A stretch of DNA of 32,989 nucleotides from Clostridia bacterium (lineage in GTDB: Bacteria; Bacillota; Clostridia; Christensenellales; Aristaeellaceae), in contig JAKSQG010000001.1 of the NCBI GenBank assembly GCA_024404275.1, positions 3,851-36,839 on the forward strand. Direction: 5' to 3'. Position 1 is the stretch's first letter, and each line of letters starts with the position of its first letter. A program made the translations under genes and the position numbers. Positions 7,533 to 25,188 of this stretch are shown in pieces. Under the pieces are notes generated by a model. The model did not search any database, had not been told where the DNA came from, and saw only the letters and a program-made list of their open reading frames with translations.

Positions 7533-8786
7533 TCAGAAGGACAGCTCGGGATGCTTTTCGAGCATCACGGTGTAGAAGTTGTTCCAGGCGGTGTCCAGAT
7601 CAACGATACCGTTGAAGTAGTCATGCATGGCGTTCTGGATCTGCTCGGTGCAGGTCTGATCATACATGGTGGACTTGGCGCGGTTGATGTTCTGAGCATT
7701 GGCCAGCAGCACGCTCACGTAGTTCTGGCCGCCCAGGAACGCATCACCGAAAGCGGGATCGTTGGCGAAGCCTTCCATAACGGAAACGCTGTTGGTGAAG
7801 TCGGACTTTTCCTTGACGATGGTGGTCAGAACGTCCTTGTCGATGGTCATGGTCTTGATGATGTCAGCAACCAGAGCTTCGTTATCGGTGCCCTTGGCAG
7901 CGCAGATCCAGGTGCCGCCCCAGGAGAAGCCAACGGGGCCTTCGCAGACAGCCCAGTCACCGGCAGTACCGGCGCCCATGGAGTAGTCGAAGAACCAGGC
8001 GGGTCCGAAGTAGCAGAAGACCTTGGAATCATGAGCCATGTCAGCGGACCAGTCGGGATCCCACAGCTTGGTGCCGTTGTTCCAGCCGTTTTCGGTGAAC
8101 TTTTTGGTCTGGGCGATCCAGGCTTCCACGGCGGCGTCCTTCTGAATCTTGCCGTCGACGACCCAGGAGGTGCTCATGTTGTCGGTGAAGGTACGATAGG
8201 TGTCATCATAACCGGAAACCATCTTGATGCCGGCATCGGCCATCATTTCGGCCACAGCTTCGAAGGACTCCCAGTCGCACAGCATTTCCTGCACAGTCTC
8301 GGGATCATCGGTGCCCAGCACTTCCAGAGCCAGGTCACGGCGATAGATCAGACCGGCGGGGCAAGCCTGCCAGGACAGACCCTTGATCTTGCCTTCGGCG
8401 TCAGTCATGATGTCCAGGGTGTACTGATACATATCGGCGATGTCTTCGGCGGTGATGCCCAGATCGGCGATATCATAAGCCAGATCCATGTACTTCACAG
8501 CGTAGTCGGCTTCCACCAGGAAGATGTCGACCTTCTTGTCGGCGGGAGCAGAATCCTGAGCCTGCAGAGCGGCATCCAGCTTGTTCTGATAGTTGTTCTC
8601 GGCGTTGGGCTCTTCGATCCAGTTGACGGTCACGCCTTCGGGAACGGTGTAGTAATCGGTGAAGCGGGTCTTCCATTCATCGTTCCAAACGAAGATGTTC
8701 AGAACAGTTCCTTCGTCAGCGAAGGCCACAGCGCACAGGCTGAGCATCATCGCAGCGATCAGGAGAGCGGAAATGAGTTTCTTCAT
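7533..8786 (-). CDS. ABC transporter extracellular solute-binding protein (sugar, family 1)
   Basis: 417 aa with signal peptide MKKLISALLIAAMMLSLCAVAFA (possible lipobox LSLC). Sits upstream of the two permeases. RBS AAGGAGG. Stop TGA. Confidence 0.8.
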   Translation of the reverse strand: MKKLISALLIAAMMLSLCAVAFADEGTVLNIFVWNDEWKTRFTDYYTVPEGVTVNWIEEPNAENNYQNKLDAALQAQDSAPADKKVDIFLVEADYAVKYMDLAYDIADLGITAEDIADMYQYTLDIMTDAEGKIKGLSWQACPAGLIYRRDLALEVLGTDDPETVQEMLCDWESFEAVAEMMADAGIKMVSGYDDTYRTFTDNMSTSWVVDGKIQKDAAVEAWIAQTKKFTENGWNNGTKLWDPDWSADMAHDSKVFCYFGPAWFFDYSMGAGTAGDWAVCEGPVGFSWGGTWICAAKGTDNEALVADIIKTMTIDKDVLTTIVKEKSDFTNSVSVMEGFANDPAFGDAFLGGQNYVSVLLANAQNINRAKSTMYDQTCTEQIQNAMHDYFNGIVDLDTAWNNFYTVMLEKHPELSF

Positions 8787-8825
8787 GGTTTTTCCTCCTT
8801 TTATAATTATCCCATTTTCGGGATA

Positions 8826-9836
8826 TTATTCATGATTGGGGGCTGCCAGCGTCTGCCCAGGCAGGTAGCAGCAGGGAACGGTCTCGATCTCGGGGAAGGT
8901 CACTTCCGGGTGTTCCACCAACTCGATCAGTTTTTGGGCTGCCGCTGCACCGATGGCTTCGGTATCCTGACGGATGGTGGTAAGCGCCGGGCGGGTTCGC
9001 TGCAGCAGCGGCACACCGTCGTAACCGACAATGGAGATATCCTACGGAATGCGCAGACCTTTTTCACGTATGGCTTCAATGCCGCCCAGTGCGGCGTAGT
9101 CGTCCGGCATGAGGATGCAGGTGGGCGGTTCGGGAAGCTCCAGCATTTTTCTTACCTGATGACGGGTGCGAGCCGGGTTGTGATACTCGCTTTCGATCAG
9201 ATAACCATCGGGAATGTCCAAACCGGCATCTATCATCGCCTTGCGGTAGCACTTTACGCGGGCTGTGGAGACTGATTTTTCCGCGCCGTGGACATAGCCG
9301 ATCTTTTTGTGACCCATTGCAAGAATGTTCTGCATCAGCAGCTCCATACCCTGACGGTTGTCAGAACGGACGCAGCTGCGTTCCTGAAACAGATAGTCAA
9401 CGGTGACCAGCGGAATCTCGCTGCGTAAAAGCTCCTGTACCTGCGGATCTTCAAAGTGGCAGCATACGATGCATACACCGTCAAATTTCCGGCTCCGGCA
9501 ATGCTCCAGGATGGTACTGCCTGTGCTTGTTCTTTGGGAAATGAAGGTGATGTCATATCCGCGGGCTTCAGCCCCCATGCGGAACGCCTGCAGGATGGGA
9601 GAAAAGTAGCTGTGCGTCAAACCGCTTTCGGAGTCATCCGCATAGAGAACGCCAAGCGTGTAGGTTTTGCCGCTTCTGAGTCCCCGCGCAGCAGCATTGG
9701 GGTTATATCCCAGCTGAGCGGCCTTTTCCTTAACAATCCTGCGGGTCTCTTCATTCACGTCCGAGTAACCATTCAGGGCTTTGCTGACCGTGGATACCGA
9801 TAATCCGCAGGCAGCGGATAGTTCCTTGAGTGTCAT
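8826..9836 (-). CDS. LacI/GalR-family transcriptional regulator containing one in-frame TAG (9042-9044)
   Basis: Track pieces 9042..9893 and 8826..9014 are in the same frame. Direct reading gives ...AIREKGLRIP-TAG-DISIVGYDGVPLLQRTRPALTTIRQD... N-terminal HTH MTLKELSAACGLSVSTVSKALNG starts at ATG 9836. Read-through length is 336 codons, normal for the family. Stop TAA. Confidence 0.85.
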
Positions 9837-9856
9837 CTGAACTCCGCTTCCGTTTC

Positions 9857-9868
9857 TAAATCGTTTTC
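9857..9868. promoter_or_regulatory. Imperfect LacI-type operator upstream of the lacI-family gene
   Basis: Minus-strand GAAAACGATTTA matches 10 of 12 positions of the perfect palindrome at 10001-10012. It lies 9 nt downstream of the putative -10 box. Confidence 0.4.
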
Positions 9869-9877
9869 GTTGAACAT

Positions 9878-9906
9878 AATATAACACACTCAAAATCAGA
9901 ATGCAA
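9878..9906 (-). promoter_or_regulatory. Putative sigma-A promoter of the lacI/ABC operon
   Basis: Minus strand: TTGCAT (9906-9901), 17-nt spacer, TATATT (9883-9878). Confidence 0.45.
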
Positions 9907-9961
9907 GTACTTTTTTTATTTTTTTTGATAATATTTCAACCATTTTTTCCTTTATAGATAG

Positions 9962-9990
9962 TTGATTTATCCTTTCCAATGCATTATAAT
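9962..9990 (+). promoter_or_regulatory. Putative sigma-A promoter of the GH94 phosphorylase gene
   Basis: TTGATT (9962-9967), 17-nt spacer, TATAAT (9985-9990). Confidence 0.55.
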
Positions 9991-10000
9991 AACTCTATTC

Positions 10001-10012
10001 GAAAACGTTTTC
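10001..10012. promoter_or_regulatory. Perfect palindromic LacI/CcpA-type operator
   Basis: GAAAACGTTTTC is a perfect 12-nt palindrome with a central CG, 10 nt downstream of the TATAAT box. It resembles the cre/LacI-family core consensus AANCGNTT. Confidence 0.6.
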
Positions 10013-10079
10013 TTTGAGAAAAGGCACTCTTCGCACCGTGCTTTTCGGTTATTCTTTCTTATCAGGAGGTAAAACCACA

Positions 10080-12503
10080 GTGGAATACGGTCATTTTGAC
10101 GATGCCGCCCGGGAGTATGTCATCACCCGGCCGGATACGCCTTCTCCCTGGATCAACTATCTGGGCAGCGAAGCCTTCTTCACCCTGATGAGCAATACCG
10201 GCGGCGGCTATTCCTTCTATAAAGATGCCCGCATGCTGCGCATCACGCGCTATCGCTATAACAACGTACCGCTTGACGCCGGCGGTCAGTATTTCTACAT
10301 TAACGACCATGGCACCGTCTGGACTCCCGGCTGGATGCCCGTACGCACCCCATTGGACCATTATGAATGCCGTCATGGTCTTGGCTACAGCAGTATCACC
10401 GGCGAGAAGAACGGCCTTTGTGTCAAGGAAACAGCCCTCGTCCCGCGCGGAAAGAATGCCCTGGTCACCCGGGTCGAACTGAAAAACGCTTCTGCTGAAA
10501 GCAAATGCTTCACCCTGACCAGCTTTGTGGAATTCTGTCTGTGGAATGCCCAGGACGATTCCACCAACTTCCAGCGCAATTTTTCTACCGGCGAGGTTGA
10601 AGTGGAAGGCAGCGCCATTTATCATAAGACCGAGTATCGTGAACGCCGCAACCATTATGCAGTGTATGCCGTCAATGCCCCGATCGACAGTTTTGAGACG
10701 GACCGTGACAGTTTCCTCGGCGCATACCGAGGATTCAACGATCCCCGTGCCGTTCTGGAAGGTGCAGAGAACAGCATGGCCAGCGGTTGGGCTCCCGTGG
10801 GCAGCCACCAGCTGAAGGTATCCCTCGCTCCTGGAGAAGAGCGTTCCTTCATCTTTGTGCTGGGCTATTGTGAAAACCCGCAGGAAGAAAAGTTCATCGC
10901 TCCCAATGTGATCAACAAAGCGCCCGCTGATGCGCTGCTCGCCGCTTTCCGTACCGATGATGATTTCGAAGCCGCTCTGGCGGAAATGAAAGCATACTGG
11001 AACGAGCTGCTTTCCATCTATCAGGTGCAGACCGGTGAATCCCGTTTCGATCGCATGGTCGGCATCTGGAATCAGTACCAGTGCATGGTCACCTTCAACA
11101 TGTCCCGTTCCGCCAGCTATTATGAAAGCGGCATCGGTCGAGGCATGGGTTTCCGTGATTCCACGCAAGACCTGCTCGGCTTTGTTCACCTGATTCCCGC
11201 CCGTGCCCGTGAGCGTTTGCTGGACATCGCCGCCACCCAATTCCCCGACGGCAGCGCTTATCACCAGTATCAGCCGCTGACCAAGCGCGGTAACTTTGAC
11301 GTTGGTTCCGGCTTCAACGATGACCCGCTGTGGCTCATCTTCGGCGCGGCTGCGTACATCAAGGAGACCGGCGATCTGTCGATCCTGCACGAATCCGTCC
11401 CCTTCGATAATGACGAATCGCTGGCGCAGCCTTTGATGGAGCATCTTCGCCGTTCTATCCACTATACTCTGGAGCACCTCGGTCCGCACAAGCTGCCGCT
11501 GATCGGCCGTGCGGACTGGAACGACTGCCTCAACCTGAATTGCTTCTCCGCTACGCCCGGTGAAAGCTTCCAGACGACCGCCAACTTTGAAAGCGGCATT
11601 GCCGAAAGCCTCTTTATCGCCGGCATGTTCATCGGTGTCTGTCCCGACTACGAAAAGCTGTGCCGTCTCTATGGCTGGAACGAGGAAGCCGATCAGGTCG
11701 CCGGTTGGAAGAAAGCCATGACCGAAGCCGTTCTGAAAGATGGCTGGGACGGCGAATGGTTCCTGCGTGCCTACGATGCCTACGGCAACAAGATCGGTTC
11801 TGACAGCTGTGAAGAGGGCAAGATCTTCATTGAACCGCAGGGCTTCCTGGTTATGGCCGGCGTTGGCGTTCAGGAAGGCTATGCTGTACGTGCCATGGAT
11901 TCCGTCCGTCATCACCTGCTCGGCGAGCACGGCGTGGCCATCCTGACGCCGCCGTACACACGTTATCATCTGGAACTTGGTGAAATCAGCTCCTATCCCC
12001 CGGGATACAAGGAGAATGGCGGCATTTTCTGCCACAACAACCCCTGGATCGTCATCGGTGAAACGGTGCTGGGCCGCGGCGGCAACGCATATGATGTGTA
12101 TGTACGCACCTGCCCCGCCTTCATCACCGATCAGAAGCTGCACCACACTGAACCGTATGTATACAGCCAGATGGTAGCCGGTCCCTATGCGCCGCGCAGC
12201 GGTCAGGCCAAAAACAGTTGGTTGACCGGTACCGCTGCCTGGACCTTCTACGCCGCCAGCCAGTCCATTCTTGGCATCAAGCCTGACTATGACGGACTGA
12301 TGATTGATCCCTGCCTGCCTGGAAATCTGACGGATGTGTCCATTACCCGCCGTTTCCGTGACAGCGTATATCATGTGCATATTGTCAACAAAGCCGGCAA
12401 CACCAAAGGTCAAATGAGCATGACCATGGACGGCATCGCCGTCAATGGCAATGTGCTGCCTGCCGTTCCCGGAGAGCATCAGGTAGAAGTCATCATGGCC
12501 TGA
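10080..12503 (+). CDS. cbp: GH94 cellobiose phosphorylase (or closely related beta-glucan disaccharide phosphorylase)
   Basis: Motifs typical of characterised cellobiose phosphorylases: [62 protein letters not shown]. The track start TTG 10014 is replaced by GTG 10080, 9 nt after AGGAGG, giving 807 aa. Stop TGA. Confidence 0.9.
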
Positions 12504-12518
12504 AAGGCATAACAAAAC

Positions 12519-15090: not shown

Positions 15091-16425
15091 TTACTTTTTG
15101 CGGCGCAGATAGGCAGGAACACCCAGATCGTCCTTTTCAACGCCGGAGGGCTGCTGAGGAGCGGCCACAGGGGCGACAGGAGCCTGCTGAACGGGAGCCG
15201 CAGCAGGAGCTGCGGGAGCCTGTACAGGAGCCGCCACAGGGCTCTGGAAGGCAGGCGCCGTAAAGGTGGGAGCAGTATAGAAAGGCGTCTGAGGCGCGGG
15301 CTGCTGAGCGGCAGGACGCGCGCTGCCGGTGGCAAAGGTATCCGGGTCAAAGCTCATGGGAGCGGGAGCGCTCTCATAAGGATTGACACTGGCATTTGCG
15401 GCACCATAAGGAGCGGAGACCGGACGGGTGCCGGGCTTGCGCTTGGGGGCCGCTCCGAAGGAATTCTTATCAAAGCCGGTGGCAATCACCGTGATGCGAA
15501 CTTCTTCGCCCAAGGATTCATCCACATTGGCGCCAAAGATGATGTTGGCTTCGCTGTCGGAAGCCTGCATGATCAGGCTGGCCGCCTCATTGACATCCAT
15601 GATGTTGAGGTCGCTGCCGCCGGACACATTGATCAGCACAGAGCGGGCGCCATCGATCTTGGTCTCAAGCAGCGGGCTGGAAATGGCTTCCTTGGCGGCA
15701 TTGACCAAACCGTTTTCGCCGCGGCCCACGCCGATGCCCATATGGGCCATGCCGCCGGCTTCCATGACCGTGCGGACATCCGCAAAGTCCAGGTTGATGA
15801 TGGCGGGAACGGCGATGAGATCGCTGATGCCCTGAATGCCCTGACGCAGCACGTCATCAGCCTTGCGGAAGGCTTCCAGCATCGTGGTGCCCTTGCTGAC
15901 CACCTGCAGCAGACGATCATTGGGGATGACCACCAGCGTATCCACATTCTGCTTCAGCTCATTGATACCGGCATCGGCATTCTTCATGCGCTGCTTGCCT
16001 TCAAACAGGAAAGGCTTGGTCACCACGGCAATGGTCAGGCAGCCCAGCTCACGGGCGACCTGAGCCACCACAGGAGCCGCGCCCGTACCGGTGCCGCCGC
16101 CCATACCGGCAGTAACAAACACCAGGTCGGCGCCCTTCAGCACCGCTTCGATATCTTCGCGGCTTTCCTCGGCGGCACGGCGGCCCACATCGGGGACGGC
16201 ACCGGCGCCCAGACCCTTGGTCAGCTTTTCGCCGATCTGAATCTTGGTTCCGGCCTTGGAAAGGTTCAGAGCCTGATGATCCGTGTTGACGGCAATAAAT
16301 TCAACACCGCGCAGCCCGGCTTCCACCATGCGGTTGACAGCGTTGCTGCCGCCGCCGCCGCATCCGACAACACGGATAGCGGCAAAACCCTTGTTATTTT
16401 CATTTTCCATCTGGACTTCCAGCAT
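15091..16425 (-). CDS. ftsZ: Cell division GTPase FtsZ
   Basis: Motifs [13 protein letters not shown] and [15 protein letters not shown], a long Pro/Ala-rich linker and the C-terminal peptide [22 protein letters not shown]. Stop TAA. Confidence 0.97.
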
Positions 16426-16456
16426 ATTAGCCTCCCGATTTCTGTCGTCGTTCTTC

Positions 16457-17638
16457 TCAGCCGCCGAAAAGATTTCTCAGCATGCCGCGAAGTCCGCGAG
16501 GTTGATTGGTCATTTCAGAATTCTCAAGCACAGTATCCATCAGACCCAGCACGCTGGTATACAGCGGACTGGACAGCTTGTTGGTCTTGCGGGGGAAATC
16601 CCGTACCGTGCGATCCAGCTTTTTGCTCATCATTTCACGCGCGCCGCGGTTGAGCGCCAGGCCGCCGCCCGTAATGAAAACCACGCTCTGGTTGGAAAGG
16701 CGTACGCCGCTGCCCTTGATGGTGTCATGGATCTTTTCGCAGATCTCTTCCACGCGGGGCTCCAGCACTTCCGCCACTTCCTCACGGGTGAAGGTGCGCG
16801 TCACATTATCGCGATCCGGCACATCATAGGTTTCTTCCTCATCGGCGTAGGTACCGAAGGTGTAGGAGCGTTTGATGGTCTCGGCGGATTCCAGCGGAAT
16901 CTTGAGGCCATATGCCAGATCGGCAGAGATATAGCCGCCGCCCACAGGCAGCACCTGCTGATAAATGATGGCGTCGCCTTCGATCACCATGACCTCGGTA
17001 TTCAGGTAACCGATATCCACCGCCACAGCGGTATTGACTCTCTCCTCGATGGGCACATACATCATGGACTGCCCCACGGAGGTAGAGAAGAAACTCGCCA
17101 CCTGCACATTGATGGCGCGGAAGCGTTCGCTTACATCGTTCAGGAAAAACTCATCCGCCACCACATAGGATACTTTGGCGCGCAGTGAATTGCCGCGCAC
17201 GCCCATGGGCTCCAGCGTCTTTTTGCCTTCATCCACCTTGAACCAGGCGGGACCGCGATGAATGATTTCACCCTGAACAGCACCCAGCTGGCGGTTGGCC
17301 TCATTAAAAAGCTCCCTGACGTCATTCTGGGTCACATGCGGATCGGTCCCCTGCAGGTCTACCCGTGCTTCCACCGTATAAACGCGGCAGAATTCGCCGG
17401 GCACGCCGACGCTGACTTCACGGATGCGGATGCCCGACTGCTCCTCCGCCTTATGAACAGCCTCGCTCATGCGGCCAATCAGATTATCGGGATCATTCCA
17501 CTGACCATCGGTATAGCCGGCATATTCCACATAACCGGCACCGAGTATATCACAGTTGCGCTGGCGATTGCCGCTGTCCGCCACGAGCACACTGATCTTG
17601 CTCGTTCCAAAGTCGACCGCCGTAAGCGTGTTCTTCAT
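16457..17638 (-). CDS. ftsA: Cell division protein FtsA (actin-like ATPase)
   Basis: 393 aa, starting [20 protein letters not shown], with [10 protein letters not shown] and ITGGGLAL motifs. Located immediately upstream of ftsZ. Stop TGA. Confidence 0.9.
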
Positions 17639-17725
17639 AATCGTTCATCCCCTGTTCGTTGCAAAAGGTGCCCTCCGTTACTGTCATGGGCAGGCAGAAT
17701 ACACCTAATAATCATAGGATACTTC

Positions 17726-17754
17726 ATTTTACCCTTTTTACGGCGGAATGGCAA
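17726..17754 (-). promoter_or_regulatory. Putative sigma-A promoter upstream of ftsA-ftsZ
   Basis: Minus strand: TTGCCA (17754-17749), 17-nt spacer, TAAAAT (17731-17726), inside the 168-bp ftsQ-ftsA spacer. Confidence 0.5.
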
Positions 17755-17806
17755 GCGTTTTTAAGGCATATATGTAATTTTTTTGGACGAATGGACTATT
17801 TTTTCG

Positions 17807-18541
17807 TCACCGGGGCAGATAACTGGCCTCGCCCGGCACAGTCGCCTCAATGGTGCCGCCCTGAAGCCCTCTGGCGCGAAGTTCCATCAGTACAGCCCGC
17901 ACCGTACCCAGCTTGCCCCGAAGGGACTGCGCGTTGCCGATCCGGATGGTATGGCCATCCCGGGTGGTCAATGTCAGGCTTTCTGTGCGGGACGCGTCCA
18001 TTGAGGCAATTTCCGTGACCCAACCCTGCGCCCGAAGCTCTTCCACCACGGCTGTTACGCTGTCAAACTGCCCTTCTTCCATGCAGACAACCCGGGAATG
18101 CTCCCTGATATCACGGATGTTGAGCCCGTTCACATAGATGCAGCCGTTATCCTCATCCAGGACATTGCTGACAGAAAGCACCACGCCGGAGGAGGAGGTG
18201 ACAAACCGCCGTCCCCCACCCCCTTCCTGGATGTTCAAAGCCGGTGTCTGCTCCTGTACATACAGGACGACTGTATCCGGCCAGATCTTTTCCAGGCTTT
18301 GATAGACATAGTGATAATCGCTGTTGATGCCCTTTCGGATGGTGTTCTCATCGACATCAAAATAGCTCATGCCTGTTTTGAGACCGCTGAGGTTATACAC
18401 CTTAAGCAGATTTTCATCACTGACACCGGCCAGCAGCACATGCTGAATGACCGCCACTTTTTCGTGTATGACAAAGGCGGCTGAAAGCAGCAATACTGCC
18501 GCCACAGCCGCGATCATGATGGTTTTCATTCCCTTTCGCAT
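17807..18541 (-). CDS. ftsQ: Cell division protein FtsQ/DivIB (short form)
   Basis: 244 aa with a single N-terminal TM helix followed by a POTRA-like region (VYNLSGLKTGMSYFDVDENTIRKGI...VVLYVQEQTP). dcw synteny. RBS GGAGGG. Stop TGA. Confidence 0.8.
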   Translation of the reverse strand: MRKGMKTIMIAAVAAVLLLSAAFVIHEKVAVIQHVLLAGVSDENLLKVYNLSGLKTGMSYFDVDENTIRKGINSDYHYVYQSLEKIWPDTVVLYVQEQTPALNIQEGGGGRRFVTSSSGVVLSVSNVLDEDNGCIYVNGLNIRDIREHSRVVCMEEGQFDSVTAVVEELRAQGWVTEIASMDASRTESLTLTTRDGHTIRIGNAQSLRGKLGTVRAVLMELRARGLQGGTIEATVPGEASYLPR

Positions 18542-18556
18542 CGGGATCCCTCCGCT

Positions 18557-19933
18557 TTATTCCAGGGCATTGACCAATTGTTTAAAGATTCTGCCGCGCT
18601 GTTCATAATCGCTGAACTGATCAAAGGAAGCACACGCCGGGGATAAAAGCACATTTCCGCCGTTCACCGCCAGCTTTCTGCAGAGCTGCACGGTTTCGGG
18701 ATAATTTTCAGCGTGATAGAGCGCCGTGTATCCCGCCTTGACCAGTGAAGCCTCGATCTGCGGAGCGGTCGCGCCGCACAGCACGATCTTGTCAATCATA
18801 CCGCTCTTCATGATCTCCTCGGACAGCGCGTCGAAGGAAACATGCTTGTCCGATCCGCCGAGAATCAGCACCGTGGGCACGCGCATGGTCTGCACTGCCT
18901 TGATGGTGCTGTCCACATTGGTGCCCTTGCTGTCATTGTACCACTTGACGCCGTCCAGCTCACGCACAAACTCAATGCGATGCTCCACACCCTTGAAGGT
19001 CTTGAGCGCCATACGGATCACCGGTGCCGGTACGCCCGCGGCAAAAGCCATCATGGCCCCCGCCAGCGCGTTCTACAGGTTATGCGGTCCGGGGATATAG
19101 ATTTCTTCCGTTGCACAGATGAGGGTTTCCTCGCTCTTCCAGCGGATGAACATTTTTCCATCATGGACAAAAGCGCCGTTCTCCACTTCGTGCTTGGAAC
19201 TGAACCAGGCAACCTGGGAAGGAATCTTCTCCGCCATCGCGCGGCACCAGCTGTCCTCATAGTTGAGCACCGCCGTATCCTTTTCGGTCTGACGATCAAA
19301 AATGTGCTGCTTCACAGCGGCATAATTGTCCATCGTGTAATGACGGTTCAGATGGTCCTCCGTCACGTTCAGCACAGCCGCCACCGTGGGATGGAAGGTA
19401 TCCGTGGTTTCCAGCTGAAAGCTGGATACCTCCGCCACCAGCACATCCTCCGGCTTGCTCAGCATAGCCGCTGCCGACATCGGATAACCGATGTTGCCGG
19501 CCACATAAGCGATCTTGCCGAAGCCGCGGAAGATCTCCCCCAGCAGCGACACCGTGGTGGTCTTGCCGTTGGTGCCGGTCAGCGCCACCAGCGTTCCCTC
19601 CGCCAGCTGCGAAGCAACCTCGAGCTCGCCGGTCACGGAAATGCCCTTCGCCTTTGCCGCAAGTACAATGGGAGCATCAATGGCGATGCCGGGGCTGATG
19701 AGCAGCACATCGGTCTTGTCCAGCAGTTCTTCCGGCTTCTGACCGAGATACCATTCGCAGGGCAGGGCCTTGAGCGTACGGATGCTCTCCCCCAGCTGTT
19801 CTTCCGTCTTGCGGTCATTCAGCATGGGAACAGCGCCAAAGCGGCACAACAGTTCTGCCACAGCGACACCACTGCGCGCCATGCCGATGATCAGCACCCT
19901 TTTCCCTTGCCAATACTGTTTCAAATCGCTCAT
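18557..19933 (-). CDS. murD: UDP-N-acetylmuramoylalanine--D-glutamate ligase MurD containing one in-frame TAG (19073-19075)
   Basis: Track pieces 19073..19951 and 18557..19054 are in the same frame. Direct reading gives ...EEIYIPGPHNL-TAG-NALAGAMMAFAAGVPAPVIRMALKTFKGVEHRIEF... P-loop GTNGKTTT is present. Start ATG 19933 follows GGAGGATAAG. Read-through gives 458 codons. Stop TAA. Confidence 0.9.
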
Positions 19934-19947
19934 CTTATCCTCCGGAA

Positions 19948-20973
19948 TCAAAACCAGGCCAGCACGCTCAGCACGGCAATAACGCTGAGTACCAGCGTAA
20001 CCGCCGCGTACATCATCACAATCTGATTCTCATTCATGCCGCTCATCTCAAAGTGATGATGGATGGGCGTCATCTTGAAAATGCGCTTGCCATGGGTCAG
20101 CTTGTAGTAGGTTCTTTGCATGATGACAGAAACAGAGCTCATCACGCAGGTAAAGCAGATCAGCAGCAGCAGGAATTCCAACCGCAGCAGCACAGCAATG
20201 CCAACCATGACGCCGCCGATGAACATGCTGCCGGTATCGCCCATAAAAATCTTGGCAGGATGGCGGTTGAATTTGAGGAATCCCAGACACGCGCCCGTCA
20301 GTGCAAAAGCCACAGCGGCACTGCATTCACCCGCGTTGAGCAGGCTGCTTCCCGCGGATGCCATCAGCAAGCCCATTGCACCGAATGCAATCATGCCCAC
20401 CGCGGTCACGCTGGACAGAATGCCGTCAATGCCATCCTGCAGGTTGGCACTATTGGTCATGAACAGCACTGTCAAGGTAAGCAGCGGGATATAGAACACA
20501 CCCAGATTCCAGGTACTGTGGGTAAAGGGCAGAATGACCTCGCTGCCGAGCGTAAAATACGCCCAAACAGAGAACAACAGACCCACGATCAACTGACCCG
20601 CAATCTTTTGCTTCGGCTTCAGTCCCTCGTGATTCTTTTTGACATCCTTGATATAGTCATCGGTAAAGCCCACAGCCATGGAACCGATGGCCACAAACAG
20701 CAGCGCCCACAGGGTATTCTGCAGCGACCAGAAGGGTACCGCAGCACCTTTTTTACGCATGAGGCACACCACCAGTACGGTAATCATCACCGTGACAGGG
20801 CCTGTGACCACACCGCCCATGTTGGGCGTGCCCTTTTTGTTGAGGTGGCTCTGCGGTCCCAGTTCGTACATGGTCTGGCCGAATTTGAGGGCACGCAGTT
20901 TTTTGATACACACCGGCATCAGAAGCATCATCAGCGCAAAGCTCATTACCACGGCTTCAGCGGCATACAACAT
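19948..20973 (-). CDS. mraY: Phospho-N-acetylmuramoyl-pentapeptide transferase MraY
   Basis: 341 aa polytopic membrane protein with motifs GTPNMGG, DDYIKD, NLQDGIDG and PIHHHFE. RBS AAGGAG. Stop TGA. Confidence 0.93.
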   Translation of the reverse strand: MLYAAEAVVMSFALMMLLMPVCIKKLRALKFGQTMYELGPQSHLNKKGTPNMGGVVTGPVTVMITVLVVCLMRKKGAAVPFWSLQNTLWALLFVAIGSMAVGFTDDYIKDVKKNHEGLKPKQKIAGQLIVGLLFSVWAYFTLGSEVILPFTHSTWNLGVFYIPLLTLTVLFMTNSANLQDGIDGILSSVTAVGMIAFGAMGLLMASAGSSLLNAGECSAAVAFALTGACLGFLKFNRHPAKIFMGDTGSMFIGGVMVGIAVLLRLEFLLLLICFTCVMSSVSVIMQRTYYKLTHGKRIFKMTPIHHHFEMSGMNENQIVMMYAAVTLVLSVIAVLSVLAWF

Positions 20974-20985
20974 AACAGCAGCTCC

Positions 20986-22440
20986 TTATTGCTTGATTTC
21001 CTGCAAAAGTTCTTTTACGATCTGCTTTTCGTCAAAGGGATATTTCTTTCCACAGATCTCCTGATAGGTTTCGTGTCCTTTGCCCGCCAGAATGACGATA
21101 TCATTGGGCTGCGCGGTTTCCAGCGCGTGACGTATGGCGGCACGGCGGTTTTCAATCACCGTATATGGCCCCGTCGTCTGCTTGATTCCCTCTTCAATGC
21201 TCTGAAGAATCGCAAAGGGATCCTCACTGCGGGGATTGTCGCTGGTCAGCACACAGTAATCGGCCATTCTGCCGCCGATTTCGCCCATGATGGGGCGTTT
21301 ACCATGGTCGCGGTCACCGCCGCAGCCAAACACAGCAATGACCCGTCCTTTTGCAAACTGACGGACCGCTTTCAGGATATTTTCCAGCGCATCGGGAGAA
21401 TGTGAATAATCAAGCAGCACCTTGTAGGGAGTATCGGTGTCCAGCATCTACGCGCGTCCGGGAACTGCCCTGACCGCCTCCAGACCCGCGGCAATGGCTT
21501 CCAACCCGACGCCAAGTGCGGCCGCGGCCGAAGCCGCGGTCAGCGCGTTATACACATTAAAAATGCCGGTCATGTGCATATGCACATCACACTCACCAAG
21601 CTCGCCCATATGCAAGCAGAAGGCTACACCCTGCTCACTGATCTCAATATCACGCGCATAGCAATCCGCATTTGCGCGGATACCGAAAGTATGATAGGGC
21701 AGCACCGTATCACGGAGAATCTGCGCCGTGGTCTCCTCATCGGCATTCAGCACAGCATTGCGTGCATAAAAAGGCGTGAAGAAGATCTTCTTCGCCTCAA
21801 AATACTGCTCCATGGAACCGAAATAATCCAGATGATCCTGCGACAGATTGGTATAGCAGGCTACATCATACACCACGCCGTCCACACGGTGCATGGCAGT
21901 GGCATGAGCGGAAACCTCCATCACAACAGCATCCACCTGCTCATCCGCCATGCGGCGCAACAGGGACTGCAGCTCATCCGCCTCGGGCGTTGTCATATTG
22001 CCATGAATGGGACGATCGCCGATCATGTTGCCCGTCGTACCGATCAGGCCGCACTTCATACCGGCATGTTCCAGAATGGATTTGATCAGATAACTGGTCG
22101 TCGTTTTGCCCTTGGTGCCGGTGATGCCGACCATTTTCATACTGCGGGACGGATGACCGTACAACGCGGCACAGATGGGACCAAAGGCTTCACGCATATT
22201 TTTTACGCGGATCTGCGGCACATCGAGCGGCAGAAAGCGTTCCACTGCCAACGCCACAGCGCCGTTGGTCACTGCCTGCGCAGCAAAATCATGCGCATCA
22301 AAACGAGCGCCGGAGATACAGCAGAACAAGCCGTTTTCATTCTTCACACGGCTGTCCATCACCGGCAGTTTTACATCGGTATCGCCCTTCCGTTCCAGAA
22401 TCAGGGAACCGCATTCCTTTTCCAGATCGCTGAGTTTCAT
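20986..22440 (-). CDS. murE: UDP-N-acetylmuramoyl-tripeptide synthetase MurE containing one in-frame TAG (21448-21450)
   Basis: Track pieces 21448..22440 and 20986..21447 abut in the same frame: ...LEAVRAVPGRA-TAG-MLDTDTPYKVLLDYSHSPDALENIL... P-loop GITGTKGKTTT is present. Read-through gives 484 codons. Stop TAA. Confidence 0.92.
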
Positions 22441-22474
22441 GTCGGACCTCTTTCCGTCTGTTTGCGCACAAGCA

Positions 22475-22510
22475 GGCTGATGAATCTGCCTTATCTCGTG
22501 TTCATCAGCC
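22475..22510 (-). other. Stem-loop in the murE leader
   Basis: GGCTGATGAA (22475-22484) / TTCATCAGCC (22501-22510), a 10-bp perfect stem with a 16-nt loop, about 35 nt upstream of the murE ATG. Confidence 0.4.
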
Positions 22511-22521
22511 GCTTGATTCAG

Positions 22522-22556
22522 AAAAAAACAGCCGACCGGTGCCTTGCAGGCACCGG
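22522..22556 (-). terminator. Intrinsic terminator after the ftsL-like gene
   Basis: CCGGTGCC/GGCACCGG (22536-22556) followed on the minus strand by TCGGCTGTTTTTTT. Confidence 0.7.
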
Positions 22557-22571
22557 AAGGCGCATCAATGA

Positions 22572-23069
22572 TTACTTTGAAGCCTGCATGCTGGCGCCGT
22601 TCAGTGTGGTGCCGGGCCGTGTCGCAGGAGCATAGATATAATTGACTTCCATGGCATCCGCCTTGGTCATACCAAGATTCACAGCAAGCTTATCGATCAC
22701 ATTTTCCGCCGTTGCGTCGGCAATCTGCTGCTTCATGCCGTTGATCTGCCTCTACGCCGATTCTACCTCGGCATACAATGTACGGCCATCCTGAAGCAGA
22801 TGACCCTTTTTTTGCACCGCCCCGGCATAGAACATCAGCATTACCACTGCCAGCAGTCCTGCCGCAATCAAAAGCAGACGCAGCGGAACACGCCGTGCCT
22901 CGGCGGGACGGTTGGGCGCGACATAGGTGCTGCGCTCATCCATATCGCAGCACACATCGCCGCCCGGCATATAGACGTTTGAGCGTATGGTCATTTTTCT
23001 GCGGTCGGCGTTCCAGTAGCCTGCCTTTGTGTATGTATGCGTGCTGCCGGCCAGAGACATATGAATCAT
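22572..23069 (-). CDS. ftsL: FtsL/DivIC-like septum formation protein containing one in-frame TAG (22752-22754)
   Basis: Track ORF 22752..23069 ends at TAG. The same frame continues for 59 codons to TAA 22572-22574: ...TLYAEVESA-TAG-RQINGMKQQIADATAENVIDKLAVNLGMTKADAMEVNYIYAP... One TM helix (LRLLLIAAGLLAVVMLMFYAG), a coiled coil and the ...LGM... tail typical of FtsL. Start could be ATG 23069 or 23060. Confidence 0.7.
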
Positions 23070-23084
23070 ACCCTTTCTTTATTA

Positions 23085-23603
23085 TTATCTGGCGGCGATC
23101 TCCGCCTCAAAACTCAAAATATCGGGAGTTTCTTCCAGGATCTTTTCTTCTTCAAGGTCGGCTTCTTCCTGCTTCTTGATGCAGATATGAGAGCCGCAGC
23201 CCGATACATCAACGTCCCGGGCATCCTGCAAAAAGCGGGTGCGCAGTTTCTGCGGCAGCAGGATACGTCCCTGACCGTCGCACTCACAATCCTCGTAGGT
23301 ATACTTTGTAAAAAGATTGATGATTTTGATCATCCGCATATCCTTCTCCGCCAGCTCCAGCAGAGAGCAGTAGTACAGCTCCCATTCGCGGCGGGGATAT
23401 ACGGCAATGGCCTTGAAATCAGGCGTCATGCAGATGCAGAAGGAATCTCCCAAAGCATTTCTGAAAGGCGCGGGAACAATTAATCTTCCCTTTGCATCCA
23501 ATCCGTGCTGGTAGTCGCCGCGGAAGCCGCCACGCAGCAGATGGGCGTATTTCTGCAGAAGAGCATTCTGCCGCTCGCCCAGCTGTTCCAGCTTTTCGCT
23601 CAC
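23085..23603 (-). CDS. mraZ: Transcriptional regulator MraZ (with ~30-aa N-terminal extension)
   Basis: GDYQHGLDAKGRLIVPAPFR and the second half-repeat CDGQGRILLPQKLR. The nearest start upstream of the first motif is GTG 23603 after AAAGGTGGTGG (alternative GTG 23636). Ends with a triple TAA. Confidence 0.8.
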   Translation of the reverse strand: MSEKLEQLGERQNALLQKYAHLLRGGFRGDYQHGLDAKGRLIVPAPFRNALGDSFCICMTPDFKAIAVYPRREWELYYCSLLELAEKDMRMIKIINLFTKYTYEDCECDGQGRILLPQKLRTRFLQDARDVDVSGCGSHICIKKQEEADLEEEKILEETPDILSFEAEIAAR

Positions 23604-23664
23604 ACGCCCACCACCTTTCCGGTTTAAATCCACCACTTGGCTCTACTTTTTGGGATTTGCAACC

Positions 23665-23693
23665 ATTATAACCCACCAAAATCGGGAACGCAA
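23665..23693 (-). promoter_or_regulatory. Putative sigma-A promoter of the dcw cluster (P-mraZ)
   Basis: Minus strand: TTGCGT (23693-23688), 17-nt spacer, TATAAT (23670-23665). Confidence 0.5.
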
Positions 23694-23985
23694 CTTTTCA
23701 GTTATTACGATTTTTTAATATTTTGCATCTTGTGCGAAAATTTGTTCGCTTATTTGAAAATGTCTTTTTTACAATCTGTCTTTTAACAAAATCCTGCGTT
23801 TTATAAATTCGTCATTTTAACCATATTTTTGCTTTCGGTTTTGGGCATTATTGCCTTCTAACTGTTACAAAAACTTAATATATTGTTTTTTACAACTTTT
23901 GGGACGAGTTTTTCCCTGATTCATGGCTGTTTTCTGCGATTTTGTACCGCAATCTCCACATTCTGCGTTTTCCACTCCACCGACA

Positions 23986-24014
23986 CAAAAAAAGAGCGGC
24001 CTTTCGGCCGCTCT
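23986..24014 (-). terminator. Intrinsic terminator after the metallophosphoesterase gene
   Basis: AGAGCGGCC/GGCCGCTCT, a 9-bp stem with a 4-nt loop, followed on the minus strand by TTTTTTTG. Confidence 0.8.
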
Positions 24015-24040
24015 TTGCCACTATTTCATATTTTTGAAGT

Positions 24041-24760
24041 TCAAATCTGGTTCTGTTCCCCACTTTCGGGTTCATCGATTCTCTTCAGCCTGAATCCAAG
24101 GGCGTCGCAAGACACCAGATGATAGCGAACCCCGCCTTGCACGCCGCTGAAGCCCGTGCGGATGGACGCGCCATGAAGGTGTCCATACACGCAATCGCGC
24201 ACACCATAACTGCTCAGCAGTTCGGAGACCTCTGTCGCTTCTCCATTTTCCGCCACCGGCGGATAATGAGTCATGGCTACCAGCGGTGCATCGGCATCCA
24301 GCGATCTGGCTTTGTCCAGCGACATTTTGAGCCGCATCAGTTCGCGCCGGTAGAGCCGCACATTTTCGACGTCCTTCTCACTGGACGGAAGCGTCCAGCC
24401 GCGGGAGCCGCAGAACAGCACGCCATTCAGTCTGACAGCGTCATTCTGTACCACGACCATCCCCGGTCCGACAATCTACCGTACCCTTGTCAGCGAACTC
24501 CACCAGTAGTCATGGTTGCCGCGAAGCATCACTTTCGTGCCGGGCAGCTCTGCAATCTCTTCCAGATCGTTCCGGGCATGCTCAAGCTGCATCGCCCAGC
24601 TGATATCGCCGGGAATCAGCACAACATCTTCTCCGGTCACTCGTTCGCGCCAGTCTGTGCGGATCTTGTCCCAGTGCCCTTCCCAGTGGGAACCGAACAC
24701 ATCCATCGGTTTATCGTCTCCCCCGGGGAGATGCAAGTCGCCAATGGCATAGATACTCAT
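24041..24760 (-). CDS. Metallophosphoesterase (calcineurin-like) containing one in-frame TAG (24476-24478)
   Basis: Track pieces 24476..24760 and 24041..24460 are in the same frame: ...GNHDYWWSSLTRVR-TAG-IVGPGMVVVQNDAVRLNGVLFCGSRGW... Motifs GDLHL, GDISW, GNHDYW and GHLH span both pieces. Read-through gives 239 codons. Stop TGA. Confidence 0.85.
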
Positions 24761-25188
24761 TTTATTCTTTTTCCGTTCATCTGGTCATAATCATCGTCTT
24801 CGTCACTGTCAAAGGCGTCCATGTCCTCGCCGTCCTCTTCCTCACCCATGGCTTCCAAAGACATTTCACCATTCTCTTCCTCATCGGAATCGGGAATGAT
24901 CTCGTCCATGGTGCTGATGGGATCGATGCTGATGGCATCCTCTTCGGAAACCGGCACATTCTCATCTCCGTTTTCCGCTGACTTTTCGTTATTGCGGTCG
25001 TCCATTTCCTTGAAGCAGAACAGGCAAACGTCCTTGCCGGGCATCACAGGATGCTCACCGCAGGCGGAGCACATCTCCAGCTCCTCACGGATGCCTTCGC
25101 CCTTCATTTCCATGCGGCAGATTTTGCAGTATTTTCCCCCGTCCAGAATATAATTCAGTTCGCAGCGGGGACATTTGGTCAGTGCCAT
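24757..25188 (-). CDS. Double zinc-ribbon protein with polyacidic C-terminal tail
   Basis: 143 aa with CPRC...CKIC and CSAC...CLFC pairs, then a D/E-rich tail. RBS GGAGGA. Its TGA overlaps the ATG of the downstream phosphoesterase (ATGA). Confidence 0.65.
   Translation of the reverse strand: MALTKCPRCELNYILDGGKYCKICRMEMKGEGIREELEMCSACGEHPVMPGKDVCLFCFKEMDDRNNEKSAENGDENVPVSEEDAISIDPISTMDEIIPDSDEEENGEMSLEAMGEEEDGEDMDAFDSDEDDDYDQMNGKRIK

Follow-up and report, generated by a model that had tools for sequence, protein, structure and literature searches.

Does an in-frame TAG within an essential gene end the protein there, or is it read as an amino acid? The question is raised by murD, the gene for UDP-N-acetylmuramoyl-L-alanine--D-glutamate ligase, in a 32,989-nucleotide stretch of an uncultured Clostridia genome (GCA_024404275.1, contig JAKSQG010000001.1, positions 3,851–36,839; hereafter the window), where a TAG lies inside a conserved motif of the coding sequence. 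We find TAG at sense positions of essential genes in this lineage, inherited across strains and a sister species and flanked by sequence under equal selection on both sides, and no gene in the window ends in TAG. We consider it likely that UAG has been reassigned throughout this uncultured gut/rumen lineage from a stop to a rare sense codon, most probably for glutamate. With UAG read as sense, murD, murE and three other genes of the window would be intact single genes.

The window has a base composition of ~54% G+C, and the minus strand carries most of its genes. It was re-read with TAA and TGA as the only stops to expose in-frame TAG codons. Its close relatives include L081 (Logan SRR27361835, 95.9% nucleotide identity to the window), L167 (ENA ERZ27247129, 98.1%) and L168 (Logan SRR21150819, 96.9%), and a sister species, GCA_045599485.1, represented by contigs L001 and L033 (91–92%). 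Ratios of nonsynonymous to synonymous substitution rates (dN/dS, or ω) were obtained by the Nei-Gojobori method and computed separately upstream and downstream of each TAG.

An in-frame TAG in the HN motif of murD

18557–19933, minus strand: murD (UDP-N-acetylmuramoyl-L-alanine--D-glutamate ligase), 458 codons, with Met at 19933 and TAA at 18557–18559
19073–19075, minus strand: in-frame TAG at murD codon 287, in the HN-x-E-N motif (CTA on the plus strand), probably read as Glu

An earlier, sequence-only reading of this DNA had placed a TAG in frame within the HN motif of murD. The plus strand does carry CTA at 19073–19075, and the translation around it, EEIYIPGPHNL-TAG-NALAGAMMAFAAGVPAPV, is exactly as given there; the peptide across the TAG is IYIPGPHNL-TAG-NALAGAMMAFAAGVP, the motif itself reading GPHNL-TAG-NALAG. 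The description of the motif as such was also correct, with close relatives reading GPHNLENALAA or GPHNTENALAA and E. coli MurD reading HNYTN. The same reading described a 165-residue C-terminal part that continues in frame to a TAA. The TAA end stands, but 171 codons stay open 3′ of the TAG, and 165 residues is the length of the ATG-started open reading frame (ORF) at 18557–19054, which begins 7 codons past the TAG. This is also how the public record presents the gene: the NCBI annotation splits murD into MCQ2452975.1 (286 residues, ‘MurD’) and MCQ2452974.1 (165 residues, hypothetical).

The identity of the protein is clear. It contains a MurD-like N-terminal domain, a Mur_ligase_M domain with the GTNGKT P-loop and a Mur_ligase_C domain (PF21799, PF08245 and PF02875, in this order), and its gene is set in a division and cell wall (dcw) cluster. 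Mur_ligase_M extends over MurD residues 119–295 and spans the TAG, with Mur_ligase_C following at residues 318–434, and solved MurD structures align across the TAG (E = 3e-19). The position occupied by the TAG is GAG or GAA, both Glu, in all 12 of the closest relatives (76–77% identity); overall, Glu is found in 71 of 78 relatives and Gln in three, these being metagenome-assembled genomes (MAGs) labelled Christensenella.

The TAG of murD is kept in L081, in the sister species (L001/L082), in L167 and in L168. As the same in-frame TAGs recur in five further assemblies, made independently from different samples and 91–98% identical to the window in nucleotide sequence, they are neither chance nor sequencing error. 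In the comparison with the sister species (L001), dN/dS is 0.048 for the codons before the TAG and 0.052 for those after it; with strain L081 the values are 0.014 and 0.012. Since the two sides are equal, a pseudogene can be rejected. The sequence-only reading had named an alignment of the TAG column and a comparison of dN/dS downstream of the TAG as checks on its implied view that murD is read through and functional; both the column and the downstream selection, which is in no way relaxed, support that view.

In-frame TAG codons in other genes of the window

20986–22440, minus strand: murE, 484 codons, ending in TAA
21448–21450, minus strand: in-frame TAG at murE codon 331, the E of the GR-x-E motif, reading VPGRA-TAG-MLD
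22572–23069, minus strand: gene of an FtsL-like membrane protein, named from its position and topology, with no Pfam match
22752–22754, minus strand: in-frame TAG at codon 106 of the FtsL-like gene, kept in L033, L081 and L167
24041–24760, minus strand: metallophosphoesterase gene, with Pfam Metallophos (residues 1–197) spanning the TAG
24476–24478, minus strand: in-frame TAG at metallophosphoesterase codon 95, GAG (Glu) in the sister species, kept as TAG in L081 and L167
8826–9836, minus strand: LacI-family regulator gene, with solved homologues aligning continuously across the TAG
9042–9044, minus strand: in-frame TAG at codon 265 of the LacI-family gene, reading GLRIP-TAG-DISIVGYD

In-frame TAG codons are found in five genes of the window (murD, murE and those of the FtsL-like protein, the metallophosphoesterase and the LacI-family regulator), and each of the five genes has either clear homologues or a signature of selection. 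TAG makes up ~0.05% of the codons read in the window. No in-frame TAA or TGA is present in the ~9,500 codons of the window. Including the sister species at ~92% nucleotide identity, in-frame TAGs are present in six assemblies of this lineage, which form a coherent clade.

The murE site closely parallels that of murD, as the sequence-only reading had anticipated in speaking of a second interrupted Mur ligase in the same cluster. Its TAG replaces the glutamate of the GR-x-E motif, a column that holds Glu in 41 of 48 relatives and in all 5 solved structures of MurE or MurE-like proteins for which an alignment was displayed. The TAG is kept in L033, L081, L167 and L168, and against L033 the dN/dS of murE is 0.037 before the TAG and 0.033 after it. 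All assemblies have murE called as two proteins, of 330 and 153 residues. The FtsL-like gene is likewise under purifying selection downstream of its TAG (ω of 0.04–0.15). The metallophosphoesterase column is divided among Glu (7), Ala (7) and Asp (3), and that of the LacI-family regulator tells nothing of the amino acid because it is variable in solved homologues (Asn, Asp, Gln). The evidence reaches beyond what had been noted for the two ligases: it indicates that TAG has changed its meaning throughout the lineage and not in Mur ligases alone, with glutamate as the most likely amino acid.

A second group of lineages with in-frame TAG

A metagenome scan with ArgS recovered a further contig, L141 (R14__coassemble_269), whose ArgS is 66% identical to that of the window. 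In its argS, the column taken by an in-frame TAG is Glu in 77 of 80 relatives. The same organism is represented by L164–L166, from the 164.8-kb contig k141_53543 of ENA ERZ27234651, of which positions 114411–155657 (41 kb) were read. This region contains eight in-frame TAGs, and none of its ~33 genes ends in TAG. The genes of this organism with in-frame TAG are argS, DUF1846, one PBP5-like gene (with two), one YabN/MazG-like gene, an ABC transporter gene and the genes of two large proteins. The phosphoenolpyruvate carboxykinase of this lineage clusters at ≥90% identity with proteins labelled Lachnospiraceae or Blautia.

Related contigs (L169 and L170–L174) have TAGs at other positions. In L169 (ENA ERZ27234668, k141_96847), clpC at 7750–10338 contains three in-frame TAGs and is called under the standard code as three ‘proteins’; two of these TAGs align to glutamates of B. 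subtilis ClpC, in GRSKEIQR and EVPEILR. The mcsB, DUF1846 and hydrolase genes of L169 have one in-frame TAG each. Across this group DUF1846 has three TAG positions (columns 75, 302 and 352), each of them GAG or GAA in the other two lineages. In the window lineage and in the second group alike, in-frame TAG thus occupies conserved sense positions in several essential genes that are unrelated to each other.

Contigs L170–L174 (ENA ERZ27234640 to ERZ27234664) form a third sub-lineage, seen in five samples, in which TAG is denser (~7 in 10 kb). Its TAG sites include a seven-transmembrane sensor kinase, an AraC-family regulator and a large fn3/LRR protein, and the set of TAGs in the large protein differs between strains L170 and L171.

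How the two groups are related was judged from ArgS. The best metagenome match to the ArgS of the window, L084 (80% identity), lacks in-frame TAG in its real genes and has a probable TAG terminator, and the nearest clade by MurD (76% identity) has Glu codons at the murD site; judging from these sequences, the nearest relatives of the window lineage look standard-code. In a neighbour-joining tree of ArgS, the window and L141 meet only at a node that holds 81 of the 82 tips, among them six lineages in which TAG terminates argS at the homologous C-terminus. Because the two are joined only across TAG-terminating lineages, this tree of one protein suggests that the recoding either had two origins or spread by transfer of the decoding machinery. 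On balance we think it probable that this is the first natural bacterial code with UAG as a sense codon (Glu), present in at least two uncultured gut/rumen Clostridia lineages that are far apart on the ArgS tree, with standard-code, TAG-terminating lineages between them.

Terminators, codon context and decoding

None of the ~27 gene ends in the window is a TAG; all are TAA (13 of 27) or TGA. Among orthologues in relatives, TAG ends 33 of 287, and for the nearest standard-code clade (L002–L011 and L026, ~76% MurD identity), which is part of these 287, it ends 3 of 86. Such low use of TAG as a terminator in the nearest clade is what one would expect of a lineage before codon capture. Relatives of the second group share too little synteny for a stop-codon baseline.

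An Rfam scan of the window gave no match, including none to an element of the PYLIS or SECIS kind, and the 80 nucleotides downstream of each TAG fold no better than shuffled sequences (z from −1.4 to +1.65). Since there is neither an Rfam match nor unusual downstream structure, no cis-acting recoding signal is indicated. The immediate context of the codon is distinctive. The base after the in-frame TAG is a purine at 22 of 23 sites in the window and related loci, compared with a background of 64% (P = 5e-4), and the base before it is G at most sites of the window lineage, though not in all lineages. In E. coli, a purine 3′ of an amber codon favours efficient amber suppression. The purine bias suggests decoding by a tRNA under selection for efficiency.

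We propose that UAG would be decoded by a tRNA with the anticodon CUA. Its simplest source would be tRNA-Glu(CUC) with a C36-to-A change, still charged by glutamyl-tRNA synthetase (GluRS); a suppressor derived from tRNA-Gln that escapes amidation by GatCAB could also deliver glutamate. Release factor 1 (RF1) reads UAA and UAG, and release factor 2 (RF2) reads UAA and UGA (PMC13462651). RF1, the only bacterial factor that reads UAG, would have been lost, disabled or made blind to UAG, leaving UAA and UGA to RF2. A tblastn search with a fragment of the GGQ region of RF1 found no match in any of the fetched loci, which do not cover the whole genome. New TAGs could arise from GAG by a G-to-T change, silent under the proposed code, or from CAG by a C-to-T change, which would amount to a conservative replacement of Gln by Glu.

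Identity of the amino acid

19598–19600, minus strand: murD codon 112, GAG in the window and TAG in sister-species contig L001
19796–19798, minus strand: murD codon 46, CAG in the window and TAG in sister-species contig L001
18254–18256, minus strand: ftsQ codon 96, in a gene with an FtsQ-type POTRA domain, CAG in the window and TAG in sister-species contig L001
25910–25912, minus strand: alpha/beta-hydrolase codon 72, CAG in the window and TAG in strain L167 (98% nucleotide identity)

UAG is most likely read as glutamate wherever it is present, as judged from the aligned columns. The choice of amino acid was scored by a Codetta-style likelihood of column frequencies at 15 TAG sites, and the log10 likelihood ratio of Glu over Gln is 9.0 over all sites and 3.5 for the window lineage alone. 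Under code 15, TAG aligns to Gln of homologues; here, the conserved columns are Glu. Within the window lineage, TAG alternates with GAG at murD codon 112 and metallophosphoesterase codon 95, with CAG at murD codon 46, ftsQ codon 96 and hydrolase codon 72, and with no other codon. The column of hydrolase codon 72 (Ala, Thr, Leu) is uninformative.

These pairs can be reconciled with a glutamate code. The mutations are the same under either code and only the filter of selection differs, so that under a glutamate code a change from GAG leaves the protein unaltered, and one from CAG replaces Gln by Glu at a column that is variable. A glutamine code would instead need fixed Glu-to-Gln replacements at strongly conserved glutamates in genes with ω of ~0.05. 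In the protein, the two would be distinguished by the MurD segment IYIPGPHNL(E/Q)NALAGAMMAFAAGVPAPVIR, whose Glu and Gln forms are 0.984 Da apart.

Contigs L001 and L033, both from GCA_045599485.1, overlap at window positions 19326–19998 in murD with differing sequences, and the TAGs at murD codons 46 and 112 are present in L001 and not in L033. Since the two differ over the same part of murD, the bin holds two strains.

Alternative readings

Several observations weigh against reassignment of UAG to glutamate. The column of the FtsL-like TAG is mixed and leans to Gln (7, with Glu 3), that of ftsQ codon 96 leans slightly to Gln, and, of five TAG differences that arose recently within the window lineage, three have CAG (Gln) and not GAG as the partner codon. 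Gln is also found in a few relatives at the columns of murD and murE. Given these CAG pairs and columns, UAG may be read as Gln, or as a mixture of Glu and Gln. As to termination, two TAGs near C-termini in related contigs (L169 4864–5550 and L170 8643–8978) could be terminators, and the zero count of TAG among the 27 gene ends of the window is weak when taken alone (P = 0.38), because the nearest clade itself rarely ends genes in TAG. ARAGORN found no tRNA(CUA) in the window or in the 174 loci fetched (~2 Mb), a search that did not extend to the rest of the source genome. The reading is built on the 33 kb of this genome that make up the window and on ~100 kb from relatives.

We regard a change of UAG to glutamine, as in code 15 gut phages, as unlikely. 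It could arise by a change of tRNA-Gln(CUG) to CUA, the tRNA being charged in Clostridia with Glu and then amidated by GatCAB, and among known reassignments of UAG the one to Gln is the most frequent (PMC8629427, PMC9523058). The three recent gains that pair with CAG, the FtsL-like column and the tolerance of Gln at the HNxEN column of murD in the MAGs labelled Christensenella would all fit it. Against this stand the strongly conserved Glu columns at which TAG is found in murD, murE, argS and, twice, clpC, the three DUF1846 sites that pair only with GAG or GAA, and the likelihood ratio given above; many Glu-to-Gln fixations at conserved sites would be required in genes under strong constraint.

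Incomplete suppression also seems improbable. Under this alternative, RF1 would be kept beside an amber suppressor tRNA, and UAG would be both stop and sense, an intermediate stage of reassignment. The rarity of TAG, the purine that follows it, suggestive of selection for efficient decoding, and the two possible terminators near C-termini are in line with such a stage. However, TAG is stable across species in the essential single-copy genes murD, murE, argS and clpC, where competition from termination would be costly, and no clear TAG terminator is present among the ~60 genes of the two lineages that were read deepest.

Reading of UAG as pyrrolysine (Pyl) throughout the genome is very improbable. 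The codon would be the same, again in a prokaryote without TAG terminators, and such a reading has been reported for archaea in the case cited in 10.64898/2026.05.24.727570. The columns at the TAG sites are nevertheless Glu, Gln or Asp and not Lys-like, and the partner codons are GAG, GAA or CAG and, in close relatives, never AAG. The bulky Pyl would also be implausible at the glutamate of the MurE GRxE motif or at those of ClpC, and the window contains no pyl genes and no PYLIS element.

Equally hard to sustain is the view that the genes are truly interrupted, either as decaying pseudogenes or as two polypeptides made by termination and re-initiation. Standard-code annotation does call fragments, and an ATG does follow the murD TAG at 7 codons. 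Yet ω is ~0.05 on both sides without frameshifts or other stops, TAG remains at the same codon over a synonymous divergence (dS) of ~0.4–0.5, and the breaks fall inside single domains and motifs, where re-initiation in murD would delete the NALAGA of HNxENALAA. Five genes here and many in the second group are affected, always by TAG and never by TAA or TGA.

A sequencing or assembly artefact is scarcely credible: a single G-to-T change from GAG to TAG is of the type that oxidative damage produces in sequencing libraries, but the TAGs are identical in six assemblies, made from different samples with different assemblers (two NCBI MAGs, Logan contigs and ENA MEGAHIT contigs), and some pair with CAG and not with GAG.

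Relation to known genetic codes

All known changes of stop codons in bacteria involve UGA (Shulgina and Eddy, PMC8629427), and no bacterial reassignment of UAG was found in the literature searched, which covered surveys and tools until mid-2026, among them the 2026 gTranslate and KACI preprints and a 2026 paper on Actinomycetota. The UGA reassignments (NCBI tables 4 and 25) are to Trp in Mycoplasmatales, some endosymbionts and Eggerthellaceae, and to Gly in Absconditabacteria and Gracilibacteria. The proposed code resembles them in that a stop becomes a sense codon throughout a lineage, which shows as in-frame stops where essential genes are conserved and as fragmented annotation under the standard code. 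The expected logic is also shared, a tRNA with the matching anticodon being combined with loss of the codon-specific release factor (PMC13462651). It differs in the codon, UAG being specific to RF1 and UGA to RF2, in the amino acid, here Glu, and in a base composition of ~54% G+C that is not AT-rich.

The same codon is read as sense in code 15 of crAss-like and other gut phages, which also belong to gut microbiomes and use a suppressor tRNA (PMC9523058). That code, however, is a phage code set against a standard-code host and inserts Gln, whereas the genes described here are cellular housekeeping genes whose columns indicate Glu. In some archaea, UAG has been assigned to pyrrolysine genome-wide (Kivenson et al. 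2025, as cited in 10.64898/2026.05.24.727570), a recoding that is hard to detect by coding density (10.64898/2026.05.24.727570). The likeness to the lineage described here would be a prokaryotic UAG without stop meaning in the whole genome; the archaea, in contrast, need Pyl machinery and insert a lysine derivative, while the positions here are those of Glu, with GAG, GAA and CAG as partners.

UAG is read as Glu in the UAR-to-Glu codes of eukaryotes (peritrich ciliates, table 30; Blastocrithidia nonstop, table 31; PMC12153298), where a tRNA-Glu with a mutated anticodon is responsible; other eukaryotic codes read UAR as Gln. Those are nuclear codes in which UAA changes together with UAG; here TAA ends 13 of the 27 window genes and never occurs in frame. 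The proposed end state, without RF1, with UAG read by a suppressor tRNA and UAA and UGA by RF2, is that of engineered RF1-free E. coli (PMC3001078, PMC4434889; recoded organisms, PMC11903333). Those strains are man-made, and this lineage would be their natural counterpart.

If the proposed reassignment is correct, the known genetic codes would gain a new member, used by free-living Clostridia of ~54% G+C, and the codon-capture and ambiguous-intermediate models could be tested outside AT-rich, reduced genomes. Bacteria living without a release factor that reads UAG would be a natural analogue of the engineered RF1-free E. coli. Both a natural tRNA-Glu(CUA)/GluRS pair and an RF1-independent bacterium are predicted, and both would be useful for genetic-code expansion. 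The reassignment would also explain the mis-annotation in public records, where splitting of genes skews gene counts, the quality scores of MAGs and protein families, and it would alter what is expected of phage-host compatibility in gut communities, in which TAG-recoded phages are common.

Antisense reading frames and gene neighbourhood

An all-versus-all screen of TAG-containing ORFs was swamped by antisense ORFs of G+C-rich genes and needed filtering. This G+C-rich DNA has long ORFs antisense to real genes, as is also the case for argS in many loci. In such frames, TAG (the antisense of the Leu codon CTA) aligns with CAG (the antisense of CTG) and can fake a signal of TAG as Gln in automated screens. 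An example in the window is the real gene at 10014–12503 on the plus strand, which encodes a GH94 phosphorylase and has an antisense ORF shadow at 10062–12515 on the minus strand.

The dcw cluster of the window is compact (15091–25188) and consists of mraZ, the FtsL-like gene, murE, mraY, murD, ftsQ, ftsA and ftsZ, the last six in the order murE-mraY-murD-ftsQ-ftsA-ftsZ. The genes rsmH, ftsI/PBP, murF, ftsW, murG and murC are absent from between them, and the interval between mraZ and murE is ~3 kb longer in relatives.

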